Shown here piece by piece: positions 4,306 to 54,344 of a stretch of DNA of 64,000 nt. The stretch is from Minisyncoccota bacterium. Its GTDB lineage: Bacteria; Patescibacteriota; Minisyncoccia; Phycocordibacterales; JABMNX01. Positions within the stretch are counted from its first letter, which is position 1; each line of letters starts with the position of its first letter. The stretch is from the NCBI GenBank assembly GCA_965222715.1, contig OZ244961.1, forward strand, positions 365,458 to 429,457, written 5' to 3'. The notes below the pieces were generated by a model. The model did not search any database, was not told where the DNA came from, and saw only the letters and a program-made list of their open reading frames with translations. Both the position numbers and the translations under genes were made by a program.

Positions 4306-4331
4306 GTTTACAATAAACGCCAAGAGTACTC
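4306..4331. terminator. Bidirectional intrinsic terminator, copy 1 of recurring palindrome, between convergent dsbA-like and nuclease genes
   Basis: aataaacgccaagagtactcttggcgtttatttt. Confidence 0.7.
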
Positions 4332-4487
4332 TTGGCGTTTATTTTGTATTGTTTAATATCTCAGCTATAGCTGAGATATTAAACAAAGGAAGTTTTATAC
4401 ATTACTTTTTATATGGTGCCCTTATACAAATTTCATACATTAACCTTCTACAAATTTCATGTATTACCCCTCTGTAAATTTTATATA

Positions 4488-5315: not shown

Positions 5316-5426
5316 TAGCTAGAAGTATAACAAAACTGCGTGTTTATATAGTACTATTGACAATAGTTTTATATTATGATATATTTAACGTAGTTATACC
5401 TGAACATTAGAGTACGAGGTGACGTT

Positions 5427-5606
5427 ATGAATCTCAAAGAGGGTGTCCCTATTATACTTCTCTTCTTAGCTGCTTCGTTTTTTGCAGCAACCGCATTCAA
5501 GGAAGCATCTCCTTCCTACGTGGGTTTTGCTATATTCAGTTTCTGTTGTGGTCTTGCCGCAATCGGAGAAGCTATCGTGAACGCGATCAAAAAAAGCAAA
5601 GGGTGA
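5427..5606 (+). CDS. Small hydrophobic protein (59 aa), hypothetical
   Basis: Strong SD GAGGTGA 6 nt upstream of ATG at 5427. Translation MNLKEGVPIILLFLAASFFAATAFKEASPSYVGFAIFSFCCGLAAIGEAIVNAIKKSKG (two TM helices). Followed by an intrinsic terminator at 5628-5659. Below the 60-aa cutoff of the ORF track. Confidence 0.35.
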   Translation: MNLKEGVPIILLFLAASFFAATAFKEASPSYVGFAIFSFCCGLAAIGEAIVNAIKKSKG

Positions 5607-5627
5607 ACACGTCGTCGCTTTTTGCTA

Positions 5628-5659
5628 AAACGCCGAGCATATGCTCGGCGTTCTCTTTT
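5628..5659. terminator. Bidirectional intrinsic terminator (small ORF / rpoD)
   Basis: aacgccgagcatatgctcggcgtt + ctcttttt; A-run on other side. Confidence 0.65.
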
Positions 5660-5671
5660 TAACAACAGCTA

Positions 5672-6985
5672 CTAGTAATTCTTGAGTTGATTTGAGTGTT
5701 CGTGGTGACGGATTTTCTCAAGCGCTTTTGCCTCGATTTGTCGAATACGTTCACGAGTTACCCCAAATTCTTTTCCTACTTCCTCAAGAGTATGATAAAT
5801 ACCATCCTCAAGTCCATGACGCATTTCAAGAATCTTTCGCTCTTTTGGTGAGAGTTCATCAAGAATACTACGCACCTGATCAGCTAGAATTCGTCGAGCT
5901 GATTCCTGGTCTGGTGAGAGAATTTTATCGTCAGCAATAAAGTCTCCGAGGGTTGATTTATCTTCCCCCTCATCCCCCACTGGGCTCTCGAGTGAAACAG
6001 TATCTTGGTTAATTTTTTCAATATTATGAATCTTCTCAACATCAAGCCCCATCTCTGCAGCAATCTCTTCTGGAAGTGGATCCCGCCCAAGATCCTGGCT
6101 CAACTGTCGTACTTTCTGCTTGTACTTTGCAATAGTTTCAACCATATGGACTGGAATACGAATAGTGCGAGATTGATCAGCAAGCGCTCGAGTAATTGCT
6201 TGGCGAATCCACCACGTTGCATAAGTTGAGAACTTGTACCCTTTTGTATAGTCAAACTTATCAACTGCACGAAAGAGTCCAATATTCCCCTCTTGAATAA
6301 GGTCGAGAAGTGTAAGATCAGGGCTACGGCCAACATATTTCTTTGCAATTGAGACGACGAGGCGTAGGTTTGCTCGCGCAAGAAGGTTCACCGCCTCTTC
6401 ATCACCTTCTGTAATGCGCTTTGCCAAGTCTCGCTCTTCCTGGGCGTTAAGGAGTGGGTACTGACCTATCTCACGGAGATACATTTGAATTGAATCGTAC
6501 GCAGAATCTTGCTTGTGATACACGTTCTTATTACCCAAGAGATTAGGTTCTTCTGCTTCAAGGAGGCCTCCTCCTTCAAGGACATCAATACTTGCCGTAT
6601 TAAGGCGTTCATACATCTCCTCAAGAAACAGTACGTCTTCCTCAATCTTAGGAAATGTCTTAAGAATTTGGTCGTACGTCACATACCCTCGTGCGCGACC
6701 ATTTTCAAGAAGTTCTTCTGCTTTCTTCTCTTTATTTTTATCTTTCTTGAGTGAAGTGCTTTTCTTCGGAGCTTTCTTCACAGCCTTTTTCTTTCCGGTT
6801 TTTTTAGGCGCTACTTTTTTTGTTACTTTTTTCTTTGCTGGCTTCTTCTTTGCAACCTTTCGTTTTGCAACTTTCTTTACTACTTTTTTAGTAGCTTTTT
6901 TTCGCGGAGATTTTTTGGTCGCTTTTGATGCGACTTTTCGAGTTGTCTTTTTTGTTTTTGTAGTAGCTTTTTTCTTTGTAGCCAT
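5672..6985 (-). CDS. rpoD: RNA polymerase sigma-70 factor RpoD/SigA with ~100-aa Lys/Ala/Thr-rich histone-H1-like N-terminal extension
   Basis: Regions 1.2-4 recognisable: [50 protein letters not shown], region 4 [25 protein letters not shown]-terminus [25 protein letters not shown]... Confidence 0.95.
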
Positions 6986-20035: not shown

Positions 20036-20060
20036 AAAACCCTTTGCTGAAGCCACAATA

Positions 20061-20086
20061 AACGCCAAAGGTACCTTTGGCGTTTA
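20061..20086. terminator. Bidirectional intrinsic terminator, copy 2 of the recurring AAACGCCAARGGTACCYTTGGCGTTT palindrome
   Basis: aataaacgccaaaggtacctttggcgtttatt between convergent rnr and hydrolase genes. Confidence 0.7.
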
Positions 20087-20092
20087 TTATTT

Positions 20093-31683: not shown

Positions 31684-31702
31684 ACTTTATGAGAGCTACA
31701 AA

Positions 31703-31728
31703 AAACGCCAAGGGTACTCTTGGCGTTT
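31703..31728. terminator. Intrinsic terminator, copy 3 of recurring palindrome
   Basis: aaaaacgccaagggtactcttggcgtttttt after thrS. Confidence 0.7.
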
Positions 31729-31755
31729 TTTGGTGCTCTGTTTAAGCGTTCTATA

Positions 31756-33120
31756 TTACCCTTTCTTTTCTTTCACAAACTCAACTGCCCGGAGAAGTGC
31801 CATCTTTGCACTCGTGTGTTGGGTAAGATAATTTTGATCAACACCACTTGAAAGAATATGTACTAGTCGCTCTATGTCTTTACTTCCCCAATTCTCGAAA
31901 TAGTCTTCAATTGACTCGTCTTTCAGTGTTTCCTCTTCCCCAAGTCGTCGTGCATGTAATCTATCAAGTTCGCACAATGCTGAGACTAATACTTCTGATA
32001 TATTGCGACCTTTTTCTTTAAATGAACGAACTACACGCAAAACCCCTTCTATATCTCCACGAACAATTGTTCGAATAAGTTCTGTTGTATGTGAAGCAGA
32101 TGGTGATACCTCGTATGTAGGTTCCTGAACTTTTTCCTGAGGTATAGTGTTTTGTGTTTCTGTGCTCGTATTAGATATAGGACGTGACACCTTTCCAGCA
32201 CGATGTAACTCAAGTACTGGCATTTTCCCGTCAGCACCTACTTTTAATTCGAGTGAATCATGCATAGCAGCAGTTGAGTGTGTGAAAGGAGAAGAAGGAG
32301 TGTACTCTACATCCTTTGAAGTTACCGTTTCTGCAACATCATCATGTCGTCCTTCATGTTCGTATATAGGTGCCTGGGTGTTCGCCGTAAATAGGTAAGC
32401 AAACACGTTATACATACGCGCACCAAATCGTCGAGTTACCAAAAAGTATGCAAGAACTCCACTCCAAAGGATAAGCATGAACCAGTAAAGAGTAGCGAGA
32501 AATGTTCCTGCTTTAAAACCAGTATACGGTACTTGGCTGAGTGTAATAAACGAGAGTGGTTGCGCGTCAGCACCAGGGAGTGCACTTACACTTACTGTTG
32601 GAGAATTTAATCCTCCTGGTCCCCCCGTACCTCCTGGACCACCAGTTGGAGTTGGGTCAGGTGTTGGGTCAGGATCAGGTGTGGGATCAGGGGTCGGATC
32701 CGGGTCTGGAGTGGGGTCAGGTGTTGGGTCGGGAGTAGGACTTGGTGTTGGACTAGGTGTTGGGCTTGGACTAGGAGATGAGCCACCACCGTCACTACCA
32801 CCATCACTAGAAGAACCGTTGTCATTTCCAGCACCAGTTCCACCACCAAAACCACCTCCACTACTTCCACCAGATGAACCGTTGTCATTTCCAGCACCAG
32901 TTCCACCACCAAAACCACCTCCATCACCGCCTCCACCTCCATCACCGCCTCCACCTCCGTCACCTCCAGCACCATCACCGCCACCGAAGGCATAGATTAC
33001 GTGACTGATATTGCTGGTAGGAACGGTTATAAGAGAAAAAAGCACAATACACACAATAAGGAAAATTGCTTTTTGGGGTGTAGATATATGCTTGTAATGT
33101 TTCTTTTTTAAGTTACTCAT
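31756..33120 (-). CDS. Membrane-anchored surface protein with Gly/Ser-rich and Pro-Thr/Pro-Asp repeat linker, second TM segment and ~260-aa C-terminal domain
   Basis: N-terminal signal-anchor. GGGDGAGGDGGGGG..., 21-aa tandem repeat GGGFGGGTGAGNDNGSS..., SPSPTPSPTPDPTPDP tract. Start set at MSNLKKK. Confidence 0.6.
   Translation of the reverse strand: MSNLKKKHYKHISTPQKAIFLIVCIVLFSLITVPTSNISHVIYAFGGGDGAGGDGGGGGDGGGGGDGGGFGGGTGAGNDNGSSGGSSGGGFGGGTGAGNDNGSSSDGGSDGGGSSPSPSPTPSPTPSPTPDPTPDPTPDPDPTPDPTPDPDPTPDPTPTGGPGGTGGPGGLNSPTVSVSALPGADAQPLSFITLSQVPYTGFKAGTFLATLYWFMLILWSGVLAYFLVTRRFGARMYNVFAYLFTANTQAPIYEHEGRHDDVAETVTSKDVEYTPSSPFTHSTAAMHDSLELKVGADGKMPVLELHRAGKVSRPISNTSTETQNTIPQEKVQEPTYEVSPSASHTTELIRTIVRGDIEGVLRVVRSFKEKGRNISEVLVSALCELDRLHARRLGEEETLKDESIEDYFENWGSKDIERLVHILSSGVDQNYLTQHTSAKMALLRAVEFVKEKKG
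32600..32960. repeat. Low-complexity tandem repeats inside surface-protein gene (12-18-bp PT/PD-encoding periodicity; 63-bp unit x2; 18-bp unit x2)
   Basis: gaaccgttgtcatttccagcaccagttccaccaccaaaaccacctcca at 32813 and 32876; atcaccgcctccacctcc x2. Confidence 0.7.
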
Positions 33121-33198
33121 AACTACTTCAAATATAAAAAGGAGGGTGGGCGGTGTAAGCCACACCACCACTCCAAAAGTTCTTCGCGATACTCGACG

Positions 33199-34416
33199 TT
33201 ACAGACAGTCGAGGATGGCGTTCAAGTTCGCACCCTCGCTACTGCTACTCCGAGCCAAGATAGCGAGCTCACTCGGACTGTTACCCCCTGAGCCAAGTCG
33301 AGTACTCAGAAGACGAACACCACTGCTGTCCACTCGTGGATACATAACCTGACAACCGTTACCTGAGGCGTCCTTCATGAGAAACTGAGAGTCTTGTTGA
33401 CTTGCTGCTTCTCGAGAGACCGTCCGCTCCCAGTATACCAGATTCGGATGCTCCGAATGGTCTCCAGGTGACGCAGAAGCTGCCTCCCACCCACTCGAAC
33501 TCGGATAGTTCACCTGGAACTGAACCGAGGTAGAGACGGTGGTTGCACTTCCCCTCCCGTCGTCATAAGCAGCCATCAGTTCGCCATCCAGGTCACGCGA
33601 GACCGCCCCGTCCTCAAACGGATACGTCTCATTCCCTTCTTGCGAGTTGACTTCACGAATCCGAGCTTGGAGTGCCGCAGGAATTGAATCCCATTCCCAG
33701 AAACGAATTCTGAGAACATACGGATCATCCACTGCGGTGCTCGCGGTCTGGACCGGAGCTGCCGTCTGCGCCACCGGTTGAGCCGGGGGTTCTGCCGCCG
33801 TCGAAGTGCTTTGCGACCCCTCGACGTAAAACGCCCAGTTGTCACAGATATGCGGTCGAACGAGCACCCACGTTTGACCTTGGTGCTCGACGCGATACAC
33901 GTCGGCCGTCCGGTCATACGTCTGCGCCCAATCGCCCATCACGACATTCGTCCAGAGACGATGGGTGTTCAGTTGAGAACTCCACATCATCCCAGAGAAT
34001 TTCGTTCCCGGAACGAGCTGTTCGACAGAGGGGTTACTCCCCTTGATTAGTTCACGCCATTTGTCGTGAACTGCGGAAGGTACATTGCAACGATCCTTGA
34101 GAATGTGAAGCGCGTAGGCCACACTCCCTTGGTAGGGATGCGCACCAGGGCGCACCCAGTTGTTGTTCCTCGTTGAAGTGCAGGTGTCGACAGCGGACGT
34201 CGTCCGTTGCGGCACACCACCTACGGTTTCCGCTTGGGTTTCCACCTGGGCCGGCGCGCTGCTGGCGATCTGCGGGGGCGATTGGGTTGCCTCGGGTTCG
34301 ACATGACATTCGCCGATACCGACACAGCCGTTCATGTCCCCGTCACCGAGGTTTATGGCGCATGCTCCCAAAACAATCGGGAGAAACACCCACACAAGGC
34401 GAAGACGTTTGATCAT
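33199..34416 (-). CDS. Putative secreted lipoprotein of foreign origin (GC ~57%, GC3-rich codons), function unknown
   Basis: Signal peptide MIKRLRLVWVFLPIVLGAC (lipobox-like LGAC). 405-aa ORF. All other frames show only short ORFs typical of high-GC sequence. Confidence 0.55.
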   Translation of the reverse strand: MIKRLRLVWVFLPIVLGACAINLGDGDMNGCVGIGECHVEPEATQSPPQIASSAPAQVETQAETVGGVPQRTTSAVDTCTSTRNNNWVRPGAHPYQGSVAYALHILKDRCNVPSAVHDKWRELIKGSNPSVEQLVPGTKFSGMMWSSQLNTHRLWTNVVMGDWAQTYDRTADVYRVEHQGQTWVLVRPHICDNWAFYVEGSQSTSTAAEPPAQPVAQTAAPVQTASTAVDDPYVLRIRFWEWDSIPAALQARIREVNSQEGNETYPFEDGAVSRDLDGELMAAYDDGRGSATTVSTSVQFQVNYPSSSGWEAASASPGDHSEHPNLVYWERTVSREAASQQDSQFLMKDASGNGCQVMYPRVDSSGVRLLSTRLGSGGNSPSELAILARSSSSEGANLNAILDCL

Positions 34417-35368: not shown

Positions 35369-36148
35369 ATGATACAGCGTTTTAAAGAAAATTTTAATAC
35401 AGAAGCAGGCGCACGAACAAAAGACATGTTTGTTCGCAGTCTCGCTGTTATTGGCTTTTTTGCCATTCTCTTTGTAGGACTATGGGGTACGGTGCAAGTA
35501 GTAAAAGTTGCACCTCAGGCATTTTCAACTCTTGCTGCGGTAACCACATCCCTTACTCAAACCTTCTTCTCTGCTGATACCGAAGAAGGGCAAGAAGGGA
35601 ATGCTGAAGAGGCTTCTTCTTCAAATCAAACTGAAGAAAGTACTACTCCAAATGAAAACGTGAGTGGAAATGAGGAAAATACTCAAGGAACAGCACAAGC
35701 ACTTACTCCTGGAGAGCGAGTTGATAACGTATTCCCTATTAACGATAGTCGAGCGCCATCAAACCCAAATGGTGAACCAGATCTTGTGGCTCGTATTCTT
35801 TCCGTTGGTGAAATAAATAGTGCTGGTGTATTTGTTCCAAAAGATAGTATTACTGTTGGCAACAAAGGAGCCGTGATGTTTGAAGTACAAAACAACGGAA
35901 CAAAAACATCTGATACCTGGGTATTTAATGCAGTGCTACCAACCTTCCCTATGCACATTTTCCACTCACAAACCCAACAAGCACTAAACCCCGGTGAGAA
36001 AATTCAATATACCCTTGGTTTTGACCAAATTGATTACAATAAAAAAGAAGGTGTAGTTACTATTAATGTAGACCCCGCTGGAAGTATGAAAGAGTCAAAT
36101 GAAAATAACAACATTGCTCAGCGGGTGTTAAAAATCATTTCAAATTAA
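35369..36148 (+). CDS. Membrane-anchored protein with C-terminal CARDB-like (cell-adhesion-related) beta-sandwich domain
   Basis: N-terminal TM; acidic linker. C-terminal domain with PDLVARILSVGE...VGNKGAVMFEVQNNGT...NPGE...NENNN pattern typical of CARDB. Confidence 0.6.
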   Translation: MIQRFKENFNTEAGARTKDMFVRSLAVIGFFAILFVGLWGTVQVVKVAPQAFSTLAAVTTSLTQTFFSADTEEGQEGNAEEASSSNQTEESTTPNENVSGNEENTQGTAQALTPGERVDNVFPINDSRAPSNPNGEPDLVARILSVGEINSAGVFVPKDSITVGNKGAVMFEVQNNGTKTSDTWVFNAVLPTFPMHIFHSQTQQALNPGEKIQYTLGFDQIDYNKKEGVVTINVDPAGSMKESNENNNIAQRVLKIISN

Positions 36149-36166
36149 AGCAACGTATAGATATTT

Positions 36167-36196
36167 AAAAACACCAAGCTAACCCTTGGTGTTTTT
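36167..36196. terminator. Bidirectional intrinsic terminator after CARDB gene
   Basis: aaaaacaccaag-ctaac-ccttggtgttttt. Confidence 0.6.
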
Positions 36197-36203
36197 TAAT
36201 ATA

Positions 36204-36232
36204 TTGACAAAATAATTTTAATATGTTATTAT
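36204..36232 (+). promoter_or_regulatory. Near-consensus sigma-70 promoter TTGACA-N17-TATTAT
   Basis: ttgaca 36204-36209, 17-nt spacer, tattat 36227-36232. Predicted TSS ~36239. Confidence 0.55.
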
Positions 36233-36238
36233 GTATAC

Positions 36239-36475
36239 AGACATTAAAGGAGTGCGAACGATGCGATAACACTACTTTGCGGGGTGGCGTACTACCCTCA
36301 CAGATAAAGTACGGCAGGACGGAATCAATTGTAGGAAATCTGCTGATGGGGCCCAGCATAACCCCTGACCAACAATAGTCACAGAAGGCGTTGTTGGGTT
36401 TCGCGAAAAGTACTCTTCCTGTGCGCAAAAGATTCCATGGACCAGCAGCTATAGAGCTGCTGGTCCATTTACTTT
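36239..36475 (+). ncRNA. Unidentified ~235-nt small RNA with its own promoter and intrinsic terminator
   Basis: Consensus promoter upstream. Terminator hairpin ggaccagcagc-tata-gagctgctggtcc at 36438-36465 plus U tract. Contains SD-like AAGGAG followed by a 2-codon ORF (AUG CGA UAA). No plausible protein ORF on plus strand. Confidence 0.5.
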
Positions 36476-36566
36476 ATTACCTAACTTTACTCCATAGAAA
36501 GAATATTTTTGCGCGATAGCTGAGAACATATACTACCCCCCTAAACTTCTTTTAGATTATTTTTCA

Positions 36567-38663
36567 TTAAATATCTAAACTAGCGTTCTTTGCATTTGAT
36601 TGAATGAATGACTTTCGAGCAGCAACGTCTGTTCCCATTAACGTATCAAATACTCTGTCTGCTTCTTGTGCATCTTCAATAGTTACTTGCTTAAGGACTC
36701 GACGCTCAGGATCCATGGTTGTCTCCCACAATTCTCCTGGGTTCATCTCTCCAAGACCCTTATATCGCTGAAGGTGGAATTTAGCAGCAGCTTTTTTCTT
36801 AATCTCCTCATCTTCAGAATCCTCTTCGTCTTCATTGTCAGAAGAAAGTTCATCAATAGCTTCGGCCGCATCTTTCCCAATAATACCTACCTTGTCATTC
36901 TCAGTGTATGCATAAAACACCTCCTTCCCTTTCTTGATTTTATAGAGTGGTGGTTGTGCAATGTAGAGATACCCTCCCTCAATGATTGGTCTGAAATAAC
37001 GGAAGAAGAGCGTCAGAAGAAGTGTTCGAATATGGGCACCATCAACATCAGCGTCAGTTGCGATAATAATTTTGTGGTACCGTAGTTTTTCAATATCAAA
37101 TGTATCTCCTATTGCAGTACCAAGCGCAACAACCAAGGCTTTGATTTCATTTGATGAAAGCATACGATCGAGACGTGCTCGTTCAACATTAAGAATCTTT
37201 CCACGAAGTGGCAGAATTGCCTGAGTACGGCGGTCACGCCCTTGCTTACTTGAACCACCAGCTGAATCTCCCTCAACAATAAAGAGCTCGGACTCTTCAG
37301 CACTTTTAGTCTGACAGTCTGCAAGCTTTCCAGGAAGTGTAAGGCCATCAAGCGCACCTTTTCGCAGTACACTATCTTTCGCGGCTTTTGCTGCTTTACG
37401 AGCCTTAAGGGCAAGCGTTGCCTTCCCAATTATCATCTTGGCATCGTCTGGATGTTCTTCAAGGAATGTAGCAAACGCTTCACTAAAGACGCTCTCTACC
37501 GCTCCTCGTGCTTCAACTGAACCAAGTTTTGATTTAGTTTGCCCTTCAAACTGAATTTCGGGCATCTTTATTGAAACTACTGCAGTCAGCCCCTCTAACA
37601 CATCATCTCCGGTAAACGCTTCACCTTCTTTGCCTCCTGATTTTTTAGAGTAGTTATTAAGCGTACGAGTCAGTGATGTTTTAAAGCCAGTAATATGTGT
37701 TCCCCCTTCTGGGTTATGAATATTGTTTGCAAAAGCAGAGATACGAGCTGAGATATCATCAACATACTGGAGTGATACCTCAACAGAAATATCATCAACT
37801 TCCTTTTCAACATAAAAAATATTCTTATGTACTGGCTTTTGATGACGGTTCTGGAACTTTACTAATGAGAGAAGACCGCCTTCAAAATAAAATGACATTG
37901 ATGGACACTCTACACCGAGGTCTCGCAAATAGTGAGTACTTTCACCATCAATTTTTTTATCATACTCACGTAAATCAAGTGTCGTAATATGAAGACCTTT
38001 TACAAGATACGCCTGTTGCCGAAGATGTGCCGTAATGCGATCCCAGTTATACTCAATGGTTTCAAAAATTTCTGCATCAGCTTCAAACTCAATAATAGTT
38101 CCTGTAATCTTTGATGCTTTTACTTTTTTGACCTTTGCCTTTGCTTTACCTCCCTTGGTGTACTCCTGCACATACATGCCACCATCACGATGCACAATTG
38201 CTTTAGCGTACACTGAAAGTGCATTTACCACCGAGACACCAACACCATGAAGACCACCAGAAACTTTATATCCTTCTCCACCAAACTTACCACCAGCATG
38301 AAGGGTGGTCATAATTGTCTCAAGTGCTGAAACTTTTGTTTTTGCGTGAATATCAACCGGAATACCGCGACCATTGTCAGCAACACGTACTCGATTACCC
38401 GGCAGAAGCGCTACTTCAATACGATCAGCAAAACCACCCATCGCTTCATCGCGTGAGTTATCAAATACCTCCCAAATAAGGTGGTGGAGTCCATCTACCC
38501 CGGTCGTACCAATATACATTCCTGGACGACGACGGACTGCTTCAAGCCCCTCAAGAACAGTAATGTCATCAGCACCATATGAGCCAACTTTTTTAGCTGT
38601 AGGTGCTGCAGTTTTACCGCTTGTTTTTGTAGACGTTGTCTTTTTAGCCTTTTTCTCTGCCAT
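36567..38663 (-). CDS. gyrB: DNA gyrase subunit B with short Lys-rich N-terminal extension
   Basis: GHKL ATPase motifs (EVFDNSRDEA, GLHGVGVSVVNALS), TOPRIM (EGDSAGGS), QRYKGLGEMN tail. Start set at MAEKKAKK. Confidence 0.95.
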   Translation of the reverse strand: MAEKKAKKTTSTKTSGKTAAPTAKKVGSYGADDITVLEGLEAVRRRPGMYIGTTGVDGLHHLIWEVFDNSRDEAMGGFADRIEVALLPGNRVRVADNGRGIPVDIHAKTKVSALETIMTTLHAGGKFGGEGYKVSGGLHGVGVSVVNALSVYAKAIVHRDGGMYVQEYTKGGKAKAKVKKVKASKITGTIIEFEADAEIFETIEYNWDRITAHLRQQAYLVKGLHITTLDLREYDKKIDGESTHYLRDLGVECPSMSFYFEGGLLSLVKFQNRHQKPVHKNIFYVEKEVDDISVEVSLQYVDDISARISAFANNIHNPEGGTHITGFKTSLTRTLNNYSKKSGGKEGEAFTGDDVLEGLTAVVSIKMPEIQFEGQTKSKLGSVEARGAVESVFSEAFATFLEEHPDDAKMIIGKATLALKARKAAKAAKDSVLRKGALDGLTLPGKLADCQTKSAEESELFIVEGDSAGGSSKQGRDRRTQAILPLRGKILNVERARLDRMLSSNEIKALVVALGTAIGDTFDIEKLRYHKIIIATDADVDGAHIRTLLLTLFFRYFRPIIEGGYLYIAQPPLYKIKKGKEVFYAYTENDKVGIIGKDAAEAIDELSSDNEDEEDSEDEEIKKKAAAKFHLQRYKGLGEMNPGELWETTMDPERRVLKQVTIEDAQEADRVFDTLMGTDVAARKSFIQSNAKNASLDI

Positions 38664-38797
38664 ATTCTGTATTTTGTGTGAGCGCAAAATTAAAAAGGAG
38701 TGCTGTTTCCTTACTCATTATTTTAGCAAAAAACCCCTGATATATCCAGTGATTTTGGGGATTATGAGCCTCTTCAGGTGGCTCTGTAGAGCCGTAA

Positions 38798-38823
38798 TAA
38801 ACGCCAAGGGTACTCTTGGCGTT
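38798..38823. terminator. Intrinsic terminator, copy 4 of recurring palindrome (overlaps pheT stop codon)
   Basis: aataaacgccaagggtactcttggcgtttatt. Confidence 0.7.
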
Positions 38824-38825
38824 TA

Positions 38826-41228
38826 TTATCGCACCTCGTAACCCTCAGTATTGTTAAGTGCTGTGGTCACTCGCTCCATAGCTTCATGTATTTCCTCATC
38901 TGAGAGTGTTTTTTCAGGCGACTGGAAGACAAGACGAAAGGCATAGGACACTCTACCGTCCTTTTTAAACTCATCAAATAATGTATGTTGCACTAGTAGG
39001 TCTCCAGCAGTATTAGTAATTGTTGTAAGTACGTCATTCCCACTCACACTCTCTGGTACCCATACTGCAATATCTCGAAGGGCAAATGGATAGATTGAAA
39101 ATGGTGTATACGTGTAGGTACTCTTATCAATTGTCGCACTATAGTCGTGTGGTTCAGGTAGTGATTCCACTACTGCATCGAAATTGCACTCATACACTCC
39201 GTTAGTCACTTTTCCGTCAGGCATCCCAAACTCTTCTTTGAGATCAGCAACAATACTTTCTAGAACTTCCTGCTTTGAAGTTGTTATACCAAGTGACATA
39301 TGTTCACTGGTATTGGTAAAGACTGTTCCTAATTCAAACAAGGAAATTGTGTTAGCACTAAACAATGGTATATTTTTTACATTTAGTTCAAGAGACTGTG
39401 TGAGTCCAGTAACAAGAGAGGGTCTAAGATATTTTTTGTCACTTGCGATTGGGTTCTCAATTTCTACTTCCCCACTATCTTGAAGTGCATAGGTATACAC
39501 TTCAGTAAAGCCACGATTGGTTAAAAATTCTCGCACCTTTTCAGCGTAGTAGAATCGCTTATTCACTGACACTTTTTTCTCACTTGTAGGTGACTGCTCT
39601 GCGACTATATTTCCATAACCATAAATGCGTCCAATTTCTTCAATAAGATCCTCTTTATTACCACTTGTGAGAAAACTAGTGTGAGCGACCAAATCAAGTC
39701 GTTCAAATGGAATAGAAACCACATACCGATCCTCTGCATCCATCATTCTTCGGTATCCGACAATATTTTTAAAGTACGCACTCTCTTCAATCTTCTCTTC
39801 GATAACCCCCTCTTTTGTTGCAGCGTGGAGCACCCGATCGTCACCGAGGTATATACCACAGTGAGATACTCCACCTTCTACCACCGTGCCCGAGAGAAAC
39901 TCTTGTGTCTTTTCCTGTGCGCCAGTGTGTACCACCTCTTCACCATCACTCAGCCGAGTGAACGAGTGTTCTTTTTTTGTTCCAACACCATTTGTTGAAA
40001 ATATAACGTCACCAGGCTTACGTTCTGATTCAATGATCGGAGTACCGTAAATATATTGATCAATAGCAATACGTGGAAGTGAGATGCCAGCTTGCGCAAA
40101 TACATACGCAACAAAGGACGAACAATCAAACGCATGTGGTGCATTATACGAGATGCTAGCACCATACTTATACGGGGTACTAACGTACGTTTGTGCAACT
40201 TCAATGACCTTAGATGCTGGCACTACTTTTTCAAATGGGAATGTGAGTCGTGCAAAGATATCTTCAATGGCTGATTCAGATATAGTAGTCCCAAGAAGAC
40301 TGTTCACCTCATTACATGAGACTCCTGACTTATATTCAATAGTTTTTTGAAGTGGAAACTCATCTACGATTCCTTCAACTGTACCACCAGCTATCTCAAG
40401 TATTAATGTAACCACCTCGGCTAATCCGTACCGAGCATATTCAGGCGCTATGCCGTTTTCAAATCGAGTTGAGGCGTCGGTACGAAGTTTTAATTCTTGA
40501 GACGTTTTGCGTATACTTGAACCTTTAAAGTTAGCAGCTGAGATAACAACAGAGGTGGTGTCTTTTGTAAGCTCAGCTTGTGTTCCACCTTTTATCCCAG
40601 CAATATCGAGAACAGCACCACTATGACTATCTGCAAGCACCATCATTCCTTCTCTAAGCGAATACTCCTCACCACCAAGTAAACTGATCTTTTCTTCTTC
40701 TTTTGCTGATCGAATAATGATACCTACACTCCCCTCTTTTTCAGTTAATTTATCGGCATCAAAGGCGTGCGTTGGTTGGCCGAGTCCCAACATAACGTAA
40801 TTTGTTGCGTCAACAATGTTGTTAATTGAACGTTGTCCAAGTGTAGTAAGACGTTCTTGTAGCCACTGGGGAGAGTCTTTTACAACAACACCTGTGATGA
40901 GCGCTGCGGTATGTCTTGGTGCGTTAATATGATCATTAATCGAGAGAGTGAGTTTCTTTGAATGAGGAAACTCTTTATATGATTCTCGTAACACATCTTT
41001 TTTTAATGGAAGCTTAAAAAGTACTGAGCACTCTTTTGCAATTCCTCTATGTGAAAGACAGTCATGAGCACGGTTTGGTAATACATCAATGTCTAAAACT
41101 GAGTCGTCACCAACAGTCTCAACGCCTTCAACCTCAAATGAATGAAAGGTGAGCTTTTCTGCAACTTCCTCGGGTGAAGGTAGTGGTGTATCAAAATATG
41201 TTTGTAGCCAGTTGTAACTTACTTTCAT
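38826..41228 (-). CDS. pheT: Phenylalanine--tRNA ligase beta subunit lacking the B2 OB domain and carrying an inserted NlpC/P60-type Cys-His domain between B5 and the catalytic-like domain
   Basis: B1 (MKVSYNWLQTYF), B3/B4 (ATNYVMLGLGQPTHAFDADKL), B5, then PYKYGAS...FDCSSFVAYVF...HCGIYLGDDRVLHA (NlpC/P60 hallmarks), then IPFERLDLVAHTS...EEIGRIYGYGNI and C-terminal FDX-ACB domain. Confidence 0.93.
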   Translation of the reverse strand: MKVSYNWLQTYFDTPLPSPEEVAEKLTFHSFEVEGVETVGDDSVLDIDVLPNRAHDCLSHRGIAKECSVLFKLPLKKDVLRESYKEFPHSKKLTLSINDHINAPRHTAALITGVVVKDSPQWLQERLTTLGQRSINNIVDATNYVMLGLGQPTHAFDADKLTEKEGSVGIIIRSAKEEEKISLLGGEEYSLREGMMVLADSHSGAVLDIAGIKGGTQAELTKDTTSVVISAANFKGSSIRKTSQELKLRTDASTRFENGIAPEYARYGLAEVVTLILEIAGGTVEGIVDEFPLQKTIEYKSGVSCNEVNSLLGTTISESAIEDIFARLTFPFEKVVPASKVIEVAQTYVSTPYKYGASISYNAPHAFDCSSFVAYVFAQAGISLPRIAIDQYIYGTPIIESERKPGDVIFSTNGVGTKKEHSFTRLSDGEEVVHTGAQEKTQEFLSGTVVEGGVSHCGIYLGDDRVLHAATKEGVIEEKIEESAYFKNIVGYRRMMDAEDRYVVSIPFERLDLVAHTSFLTSGNKEDLIEEIGRIYGYGNIVAEQSPTSEKKVSVNKRFYYAEKVREFLTNRGFTEVYTYALQDSGEVEIENPIASDKKYLRPSLVTGLTQSLELNVKNIPLFSANTISLFELGTVFTNTSEHMSLGITTSKQEVLESIVADLKEEFGMPDGKVTNGVYECNFDAVVESLPEPHDYSATIDKSTYTYTPFSIYPFALRDIAVWVPESVSGNDVLTTITNTAGDLLVQHTLFDEFKKDGRVSYAFRLVFQSPEKTLSDEEIHEAMERVTTALNNTEGYEVR

Positions 41229-41239
41229 ATATTCTGTAT

Positions 41240-41980
41240 TTAAAACTGATTTACAAACCGTAAGTCACCTGTGTGAAAGAGACGTGTGTCATCAATACCG
41301 TACTTGAGCATACCGAGCCTCTCAACCCCAGTACCAAACGCAAACCCCTGCCACTCTTTCGGGTTAATACCTGAGCTCTCAAGCACCTTAGGGTGAACCA
41401 TTCCTGCTCCCATGATCTCAATCCACTTATCACGCAAACGGTCAGGCGCACTGTCTCCCACAAGGCGCATATCAATCTCAACACCTGGTTCAACAAATGG
41501 GAAGTAACTGGGGCGGAGACGCACCTCCACATCACTTCCAAAAAATTTCTCAAAGAATGTTTCAAGGACACCCTTAAGAGTTGCAAGTGTCACATCTTTT
41601 CCAATCATCAAACCTTCAACTTGATAAAACTGTGCTTCATGTGTCATATCAGTTGCCTCGTGTCGATACACCTTACCAGGGGCGATGATACGAATTGGAG
41701 GTTCGTGTTTTTCCATGTAGCGCACCTGCACGGGGCTGGTGTGGGTGCGGAGGAGTTTTTTTGCATTAAGTGGTTTAAGCCAAAAAGTATCCCACATGTC
41801 ACGTGCTGGGTGATTCTGAGGAACATTCAAAGTGTCAAAATTGTAATATTCTGTCTCAATTTCAGGCCCTTCTGCAAATTCAAACCCCATCTCACGAAAA
41901 ATCGCGTTTATCTCGCGGATCATTCTAGTTATTGGGTGAATGTGTGCTTGAGCCGTGCTCTCCTCAGTCATATTGCTCAA
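41240..41980 (-). CDS. pheS: Phenylalanine--tRNA ligase alpha subunit (short, catalytic core only)
   Basis: Class II motifs: NHPARDMWDTFW, FRPSYFPFVEPGVEID, AFGTGVERL. 246 aa. Confidence 0.92.
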   Translation of the reverse strand: MSNMTEESTAQAHIHPITRMIREINAIFREMGFEFAEGPEIETEYYNFDTLNVPQNHPARDMWDTFWLKPLNAKKLLRTHTSPVQVRYMEKHEPPIRIIAPGKVYRHEATDMTHEAQFYQVEGLMIGKDVTLATLKGVLETFFEKFFGSDVEVRLRPSYFPFVEPGVEIDMRLVGDSAPDRLRDKWIEIMGAGMVHPKVLESSGINPKEWQGFAFGTGVERLGMLKYGIDDTRLFHTGDLRFVNQF

Positions 41981-44725: not shown

Positions 44726-44801
44726 TGGAGCCACCTGTCAGACTCGAACTGACGACCTACTCATTACAAGTGAGTTGCTCTACCAACTGAGCTAAGGTGG
44801 C
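44726..44801 (-). tRNA. tRNA-Thr (anticodon UGU), CCA encoded
   Basis: GCCACCTTAGCTCAGTTGGTAGAGCAACTCACTTGTAATGAGTAGGTCGTCAGTTCGAGTCTGACAGGTGGCTCCA. 7-bp acceptor stem pairs perfectly. D, anticodon (loop CTTGTAA) and T arms (TTCGAGT loop) fold canonically. Confidence 0.85.
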
Positions 44802-53920: not shown

Positions 53921-53947
53921 TGCAAAAATGGCTCTATAAAGGCATGA

Positions 53948-53973
53948 AAAACGCCAAGGGTACCCTTGGCGTT
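53948..53973. terminator. Intrinsic terminator, copy 5 of recurring palindrome
   Basis: aaaaacgccaagggtacccttggcgtttttt after kinase gene. Confidence 0.7.
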
Positions 53974-54067
53974 TTTTGTAGTGTGTATGCTGGTGGATAT
54001 ATGAATAATTTGACAAATGGTATTTATATATGATATAATTTTACTAGTTTTAGTAATGTGCTGAGAC

Positions 54068-54304
54068 TTGGAAAGGAGTAAAGACATGCGTGACGCAATA
54101 TCCGCACTTGCTTACACCATTTTCGGCATTCTTTTGACGGGCGCAGTAGTTGTCGGGATTATCTTTTATCTCGACTTCCTGTCAGTTCTCTCCACAGGAC
54201 TCGGAAAGTGGTTCATGATCATCATACTAGAAGCTGGCGGGATCACTGGCTTGTGCCTCTGGTGTAAACGGTACGACAAAGTCAACTATGGCAGCGAGGT
54301 GTGA
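54068..54304 (+). CDS. Small hypothetical membrane protein (2 TM)
   Basis: ORF with AISALAYTIFGILLTGAVVVGIIFYL and FMIIILEAGGITGLCLW helices. Confidence 0.4.
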   Translation: MERSKDMRDAISALAYTIFGILLTGAVVVGIIFYLDFLSVLSTGLGKWFMIIILEAGGITGLCLWCKRYDKVNYGSEV

Positions 54305-54344
54305 AATACAACTTCGCTGTTTTTCTTTACTTAATATAACAGAC

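Follow-up and report, generated by a model that had tools for sequence, protein, structure and literature searches.

The 418-nt gap between two convergent genes, one encoding a CARDB-domain protein and the other gyrB, in a member of the Patescibacteria (Parcubacteria/Paceibacteria group) raises the question of what is specified by a complete promoter-to-terminator unit in which no usable open reading frame (ORF) can be recognized. The unit lies within a stretch of 64,000 nt, hereafter the window, from a streamlined genome of 617 kb, and a preliminary description had taken it to be an orphan small RNA (sRNA) gene. We found that a transcription unit with a promoter, a terminator and no usable ORF is indeed present; the unit could not, on the other hand, be shown to yield a structured, conserved or identifiable RNA.

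The locus and its transcription signals

The gap is bounded upstream by the gene for a membrane-anchored CARDB-domain protein of 259 aa (35369-36148, plus strand; Pfam CARDB, E = 6e-7) and downstream, convergent with the unit, by gyrB (36567-38663, minus strand), which specifies 698 aa from its ATG and contains four gyrase B Pfam domains; a sortase gene and pheT complete the neighbourhood. The nearest GyrB homologues are 87%, 84%, 84%, 82% and 81% identical, and those that are named are annotated as Pacebacteria, Paceibacterota or Kaiserbacteria. Close relatives have the same gene order as the window (pheS-pheT-gyrB, then the convergent CARDB protein gene, then the sortase gene).

Some features of the surrounding genes deserve mention in their own right. 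No gene separates pheS (41240-41980) from pheT (38826-41228) in the window; in relatives a gene for a 118-aa protein of the bAvd / 23S rRNA-IVS type (PF05635, PF22296), absent from the window, lies between them (L082, 7056-7412; L085 and L086, 6529-6885). The CARDB protein, at 259 aa compared with 336-365 aa in relatives (L081, 8028-9125; L082, 12171-13181), is without about 100 internal residues, in place of which it has an acidic linker rich in Glu, Asn, Ser and Thr. Further away, a 405-aa ORF on the minus strand (33199-34416) has a GC content of 0.55-0.64, compared with 0.35-0.45 around it; it is syntenic in relatives (401-403 aa) and has no Pfam domain. In a 471-aa minus-strand ORF (31756-33171), long stretches rich in Gly (GGGDGGGG) and repeats of Pro, Thr, Asp and Ser (PTPDPT, PSPTPS) precede a hydrophobic segment; its product has the appearance of a low-complexity protein that is secreted or surface-located.

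The putative sigma-70-type promoter of the unit (36204-36232, plus strand) comprises a -35 hexamer TTGACA (36204-36209), a 17-nt spacer, an extended -10 TG (36224-36225) and a -10 hexamer TATTAT (36227-36232). With a score of 11/12 it is the top site between positions 33 and 40 kb of the window, so that the near-perfect promoter of the preliminary description, TTGACA (36204) and TATTAT (36227) at a distance of 17 nt, is borne out and gains an extended -10 element. Sites scoring 11/12 number five in the whole 64-kb window compared with 1.8 in shuffled sequences; all five are intergenic and each faces a unit downstream. TTGACA and TGn are combined at only three sites in the window (5357, 36204 and 54010). 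RNA polymerase would start at about A36239 from this near-consensus extended -10 promoter, probably strongly.

About 200 nt downstream of the promoter, on the same strand, is an intrinsic terminator (36437-36479) with a perfect stem (ATGGACCAGCAGCT / AGCTGCTGGTCCAT, 36437-36468), a 4-nt loop and the U-rich tail TTTACTTTATT. A stem and U-tract had been described here before, although the stem is of 14 bp and not 12. Transcription is expected to stop at this hairpin and U-tract, at about 36475, and the probable product of the unit is a non-coding RNA, about 235-240 nt long. Perfect stems of 10 bp or more are concentrated at gene ends in the 64-kb window, where about 13 distinct ones (30 stem/loop registers scored) compare with 0.6 registers in shuffles, an enrichment of approximately 50-fold.

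The convergent pair also has a native bidirectional terminator, AAAAACACCAAG-ctaacc-CTTGGTGTTTTT (36161-36202), at the same position as the single terminator in L081, L082 and L085. Its sequence has diverged from a palindrome, AAACGCCAAGGGTACCCTTGGCGTTT, other copies of which stand at five gene ends elsewhere in the window. The palindrome, AA(A/T)AAACGCCAAG(A/G)GTAC(C/T)CTTGGCGTTT(A/T)TT, recurs almost verbatim at 4312-4343, 20057-20088, 31699-31732, 38795-38828 and 53947-53976, and in diverged form at 36167-36196; the hairpin sequences of close relatives differ from it. One may speculate, by analogy, that this reused palindromic terminator recalls the terminators formed by inverted uptake sequences in naturally competent bacteria. 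The hairpin of the unit, read on the minus strand, has the tail GGAATCTTTT and is the first hairpin met by gyrB transcripts. Lying between gyrB and the native terminator, it would now serve as the first terminator for gyrB and be common to gyrB and the unit; it is the only evident structural addition made by the unit. An AT-rich spacer (36480-36566), which belongs both to the inserted DNA and to the gyrB 3' UTR, separates it from the gyrB stop codon; in relatives the distance from the gyrB stop to the terminator is only about 25-40 nt.

Promoter and hairpin might have come together by chance, the hairpin being simply the gyrB terminator and the promoter-like site silent, in which case no discrete RNA would be made. 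It is true that gyrB needs a hairpin anyway, and that the promoter lies in AT-rich DNA beside a T-tract. Against this, the combination of an 11/12 score, TGn and a 17-nt spacer is rare, such sites exceed expectation and all precede units (see above), and the succession of promoter, Shine-Dalgarno (SD) sequence with ATG, and terminator in the right order on one strand is improbable. We regard a mere juxtaposition as improbable.

Comparison with relatives and origin of the insertion

We compared the locus with 86 related gyrB loci, 80 of them from species-representative genomes (gyrB 67-80% identical). No homologue of the unit was found across these loci by blastn, nhmmer or tblastn: the unit is absent from all 86, including those that are syntenic at 81-87% gyrB identity. 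The gap between gyrB and the CARDB gene is 69-73 nt, with one bidirectional terminator, in L081 (gyrB 87% identical), L082 (84%) and L085/L086 (81%); in L084 (82%) it is 178 nt, with unrelated hairpins. As only some 70 nt, with a single bidirectional terminator, lie here in the closest relatives, the unit is a lineage-specific insertion. Judged from these alignments, about 370 bp (36203-36566) is inserted between the native terminator and the gyrB stop, with its own promoter and an unrelated terminator. The C-terminus of the CARDB protein is intact and can be aligned with the L081 and L082 orthologues as far as their final residue; thus the extra DNA is an insertion and not the product of gene decay. 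We accordingly rejected a decayed 3' end of the upstream gene, as the part that the CARDB protein is missing is an internal domain.

The source of the inserted DNA was sought in several collections. Phage and plasmid collections gave only AT-rich promoter-like matches, two scans of viral contigs gave no match, and a metagenome scan with 18-mers gave 10 matches, the flanks of which are all unrelated. There is no second copy of the unit in the 64-kb window and no terminal inverted repeat at the borders of the insertion, and a MITE or other small mobile element was rejected on these grounds. Small ORFs do occur at the same gyrB/CARDB spot in other Paceibacteria (L017, L073, L064 and L056). The orphan unit is strain-specific, and is to be classed either as an orphan sRNA or as a small-gene cassette that has degenerated. 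What it mainly illustrates is that streamlined genomes still gain strain-specific promoter-to-terminator cassettes.

Coding capacity and the sister cassettes

The 5' end of the predicted transcript carries, as had been described, a Shine-Dalgarno sequence AAGGAG (36247-36252, plus strand), 8 nt after the predicted start, and after a further 8 nt a two-codon mini-ORF, ATG CGA TAA (36261-36269). An AGGAG-N5-11-ATG arrangement within the first 40 nt of the transcript has P ~0.004 (0.4% of shuffles), and only 17 such arrangements occur in 128 kb (both strands); the SD-ATG of the unit is unlikely to be accidental. A ribosome could load at AAGGAG-N8-AUG and would terminate after Met-Arg, and since the frame closes there the RNA would be effectively non-coding. 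No credible alternative was found on the plus strand, in agreement with the preliminary description: a 51-aa ORF begins inside the -10 box, and a 42-aa ORF with a TTG start extends through the terminator. The 87-aa ORF on the minus strand (36165-36428), previously considered poor, proved to use codons in the manner of non-coding sequence, and a search of 5.8 billion protein clusters gave no homologue of it. None of these three ORFs has a Pfam domain, and the six frames (concatenated) gave no match at E<=10 in the same protein clusters.

Among the six frames, the ATG frame scores highest in codon usage, at 0.0 to 0.08. This value is suggestive, though weak and intermediate, as the coding mean is 0.41 and the non-coding mean -0.29; it corresponds to the 5th percentile of true coding windows. 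If the TAA at 36267 is treated as a sense codon, the frame extends to 35 codons, ending with TGA at 36366-36368, 68 nt before the terminator, and would specify a hydrophilic peptide of 35 aa (MRxHYFAGWRTTLTDKVRQDGINCRKSADGAQHNP). The unit might then be an intact small protein gene, hidden by a fault in the assembly or by a nonsense mutation that arose very recently, and the ideal SD-ATG geometry, the single change that opens the frame and its top rank among the six in codon usage all speak for this. However, no frame has a homologue among the protein clusters searched, 32 open codons at this GC content have an estimated chance probability of ~0.16, and the codon score stands low among those of true coding windows. 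A hidden protein gene is in our judgement quite improbable.

Two other cassettes in the window have the layout of a small-protein gene. Cassette 1 (5357-5652) has a promoter at 5357, a 59-aa hydrophobic ORF (5427-5606) and a hairpin terminator (5629-5652); cassette 2 (54010-54320) has a promoter at 54010, AAAGGAG and a 72-aa hydrophobic ORF (54086-54304). In both, a short leader is followed by an SD, an ATG, a small ORF and then a hairpin terminator. Neither ORF has a homologue among the 5.8 billion protein clusters, and their products are candidates for small membrane proteins or for peptides of the type I toxin kind. The codon score of the ATG frame in the orphan unit falls within the range of these two small ORFs (0.115 and -0.018). 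We found no paralogy between the unit and either cassette at the DNA or protein level.

Judged as a small-protein cassette, the unit has promoter, SD, ATG and terminator in order, but its frame is closed by TAA at codon 3. Because the SD-ATG has P ~0.004 and because the two sister cassettes encode small proteins, a coding-type cassette without an ORF is suggested to be at least as likely as a dedicated sRNA gene. The reading that we prefer, to which we assign a probability somewhat under one half (about 0.45), is that of a small-gene-type cassette whose functional frame was lost or never present, and whose product would be a young or degenerate orphan transcript and not a conserved structured RNA. 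The signals of transcription are far above chance, and comparable promoters in the window all precede real units; the DNA was inserted in this lineage next to a gene whose end is complete; and small ORFs are found at the gyrB/CARDB spot elsewhere, as are cassettes of the same layout within the window. A body that folds no better than shuffles on either strand (see below), with a coding-like GC content and its best codon score in the ATG frame, is also in keeping with such an origin.

Several observations weigh against a degenerate cassette. No ancestral ORF can be identified; no frame matches any protein, and the unit is not paralogous to the sister cassettes. The codon-usage signal is weak, falling short of the coding distribution though above the non-coding one. 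DNA of no use should be lost from a genome as streamlined as this one, of 617 kb, and selection for the RNA itself as the product would account equally well for a pristine promoter, SD and terminator combined with a closed frame.

RNA structure, possible regulation of gyrB and known systems

As an independent sRNA gene, the unit has a promoter, a same-strand terminator and no translatable ORF, and shows no conservation or covariation. The body of the transcript (36239-36436, plus strand; ~198 nt), which has no ORF and no homologue, has a GC content of ~0.45, similar to that of coding sequence and higher than the 0.31-0.36 of the AT-rich spacers on either side. Without the terminator, these 198 nt do not fold beyond shuffles on the plus strand (z = -0.98; 32 of 200 shuffles equal or better) or on the minus strand (z = -0.32). 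The full transcript reaches z = -4.4 because the terminator hairpin contributes. Both of the GC hairpins that had been pointed out in the body exist; nevertheless, its structure is at the level expected by chance for such a composition. Thus, a good promoter and terminator alone do not make a structured RNA gene.

Nor was a known RNA recognized. At gathering thresholds, Rfam matched only a tRNA-Thr (44729-44801) in the whole window, and none of the families tested (6S RF00013, SRP, RNase P, tmRNA, riboswitches and T-box) reached its threshold; at E<=10, positions 36100-36600 gave only noise in the AT-rich promoter part (best E = 0.49, 21.8 bits compared with a threshold of 81). ARAGORN found no tmRNA. 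The earlier failure to assign 6S, SRP, tmRNA or RNase P by eye is upheld by both programs, and the covariance-model search that had been proposed leaves an orphan unit without a family match, not a trivial known element. A riboswitch or attenuator leader was rejected, as the next gene, gyrB, is convergent and no aptamer matches. TIGR arrays are defined by tandem repeat units and an adjacent Tas (Nop-domain) gene (PMC12045711). The unit has no direct repeats >12 nt and no adjacent Tas (Nop-domain) or Cas gene; with neither tandem repeats nor a Nop-domain gene nearby it is not a TIGR array, and a CRISPR-like guide array was rejected likewise.

The main rival to a degenerate cassette is a young regulatory RNA, which we consider possible but doubtful. 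It might base-pair with targets in trans, or serve in cis as antisense to read-through transcripts of gyrB. On the minus strand the hairpin at 36437-36468 is followed by only GGAAUCUUUU, which makes read-through from gyrB across the whole unit plausible; transcripts that pass this weak side of the hairpin would continue to the native terminator (36161-36202) and be fully complementary to the RNA of the unit. The SD and mini-ORF might load a ribosome that protects the 5' end, by analogy with the STAB-SD stabilizers of Gram-positive bacteria. A strong promoter and terminator without an ORF fit such a gene. Weak structure and restriction to one lineage are found in many bona fide sRNAs, and a conserved structured element lies opposite gyrB, at its 3' end, in other Paceibacteria (described below). 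Yet the unit shows no conservation and no structure beyond chance, and the nearest relatives do without it. Target prediction within the 64-kb window gave no complementarity above shuffled controls: the longest, of 14 nt, is opposite a minus-strand gene and is equalled by 8% of the controls.

The element in other Paceibacteria came to our attention at the same locus. Of 82 loci searched, about 11, with gyrB about 69-73% identical, have an element of ~105 nt that abuts the gyrB stop; its 3' end is 0-6 nt from the stop in nine of the 11. It is rod-shaped, and its parts are an outer stem, an internal loop with tandem G-A and an apical stem of CGUAC/GUACG. Over the 12 matches (L076 has two), pairing holds in 87.5% of cells and compensatory changes are seen at 27 of the 33 pairs, values reached by none of 500 shuffles; the covariation score is 0.597, compared with 0.10-0.13 for slid controls. 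Conserved G·U and U·G pairs suggest that the folded strand is the one opposite gyrB. The element lies on the minus strand in each of L030 (6071-6180), L064 (6043-6153), L013 (6094-6206), L026 (6055-6164), L047 (5024-5134), L076 (6080-6190, with a second copy at about 6313-6413), L039 (6070-6185), L062 (2587-2695), L072 (2441-2607), L050 (6460-6573) and L069 (1813-1920). L076 and L039 have a second, upstream variant of the motif, with an insert common to both. We found no Rfam 15 match to the motif and no consistent promoter upstream of it. Its presence in these genomes suggests that RNA genes convergent with gyrB recur in the group, and a covarying, uncatalogued RNA motif abutting gyrB is the more valuable by-product of this analysis.

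The sequence GGCGTAC...GTACGG in the orphan unit resembles the apical stem of this motif, and for this reason we built a covariance model, R1, from eight covarying members (true members score 32-108 bits). With filters off, R1 found no match in 36200-36500 at E<=10, and the motif is absent from the window; membership of the unit was rejected. This result, with the Rfam and ARAGORN searches and the lack of tandem repeats and of a Nop-domain gene, largely refutes the notion that the unit is a divergent copy of a known RNA (6S, SRP, tmRNA, RNase P, a riboswitch or a TIGR array) or of the gyrB-adjacent motif. A size of ~200-240 nt and a strong promoter are what such an RNA would have, as is the likeness to the apical stem, and we nonetheless consider this explanation very improbable.

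A more far-reaching proposal, to which we give a small chance, is that this bacterium of the Candidate Phyla Radiation (CPR)/Patescibacteria has in the unit a functional riboregulator, convergent with gyrB. Its targets would be read-through gyrB 3' UTRs, by pairing, or other RNAs in trans; the SD and mini-ORF would attract a ribosome that serves as stabilizer, and the RNA would be a non-homologous functional analogue of the Paceibacteria RNA opposite gyrB. If true, it would point to recurrent antisense control of gyrase in these minimal genomes. A full-text literature search found no paper on CPR sRNAs, and the regulatory RNAs of this radiation are essentially uncharted; a highly expressed orphan transcript beside gyrB would, if made, be a concrete candidate regulatory RNA.

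How, then, does the unit compare with known systems? Like stand-alone sRNA genes, it has a consensus promoter, a length of ~235 nt, a Rho-independent terminator and no usable ORF, and lies between convergent genes; it differs from them in being unconserved even in congeners, in having structure at chance level and no identifiable seed or target, and in its canonical SD-AUG at the 5' end. With 6S, SRP, tmRNA and RNase P it has only the size class and a strong promoter in common: its predicted fold is not the rod of 6S, and it is absent from the locus in close relatives, whereas a housekeeping RNA is expected to be conserved.

The SD-AUG itself has parallels in the STAB-SD of cryIIIA, a 5' stabilizer SD element, and in the start-stop sites that ribosome profiling has revealed in E. 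coli. By analogy, the unit resembles these in its strong SD near the 5' end, its lack of a real protein and an AUG placed almost directly before a stop. The known examples sit in mRNA leaders, whereas the SD-AUG of the unit, known here from sequence alone, heads an otherwise non-coding RNA. With the sister cassettes the unit shares the TTGACA-17/18-TGnTATnnT promoter, a leader, an SD, an ATG and a hairpin terminator, as well as an intergenic position adjoining a gene-end terminator and a lack of homologues; their frames are open for 59 and 72 codons and hydrophobic, whereas that of the unit stops after two codons and bears no similarity to them. The gyrB-adjacent motif differs in being a covarying rod of ~105 nt placed 0-6 nt from the gyrB stop, compared with 100 nt for the unit, which its model does not match; even so, the two would share a niche directly 3' of gyrB and a fold on the strand opposite it.
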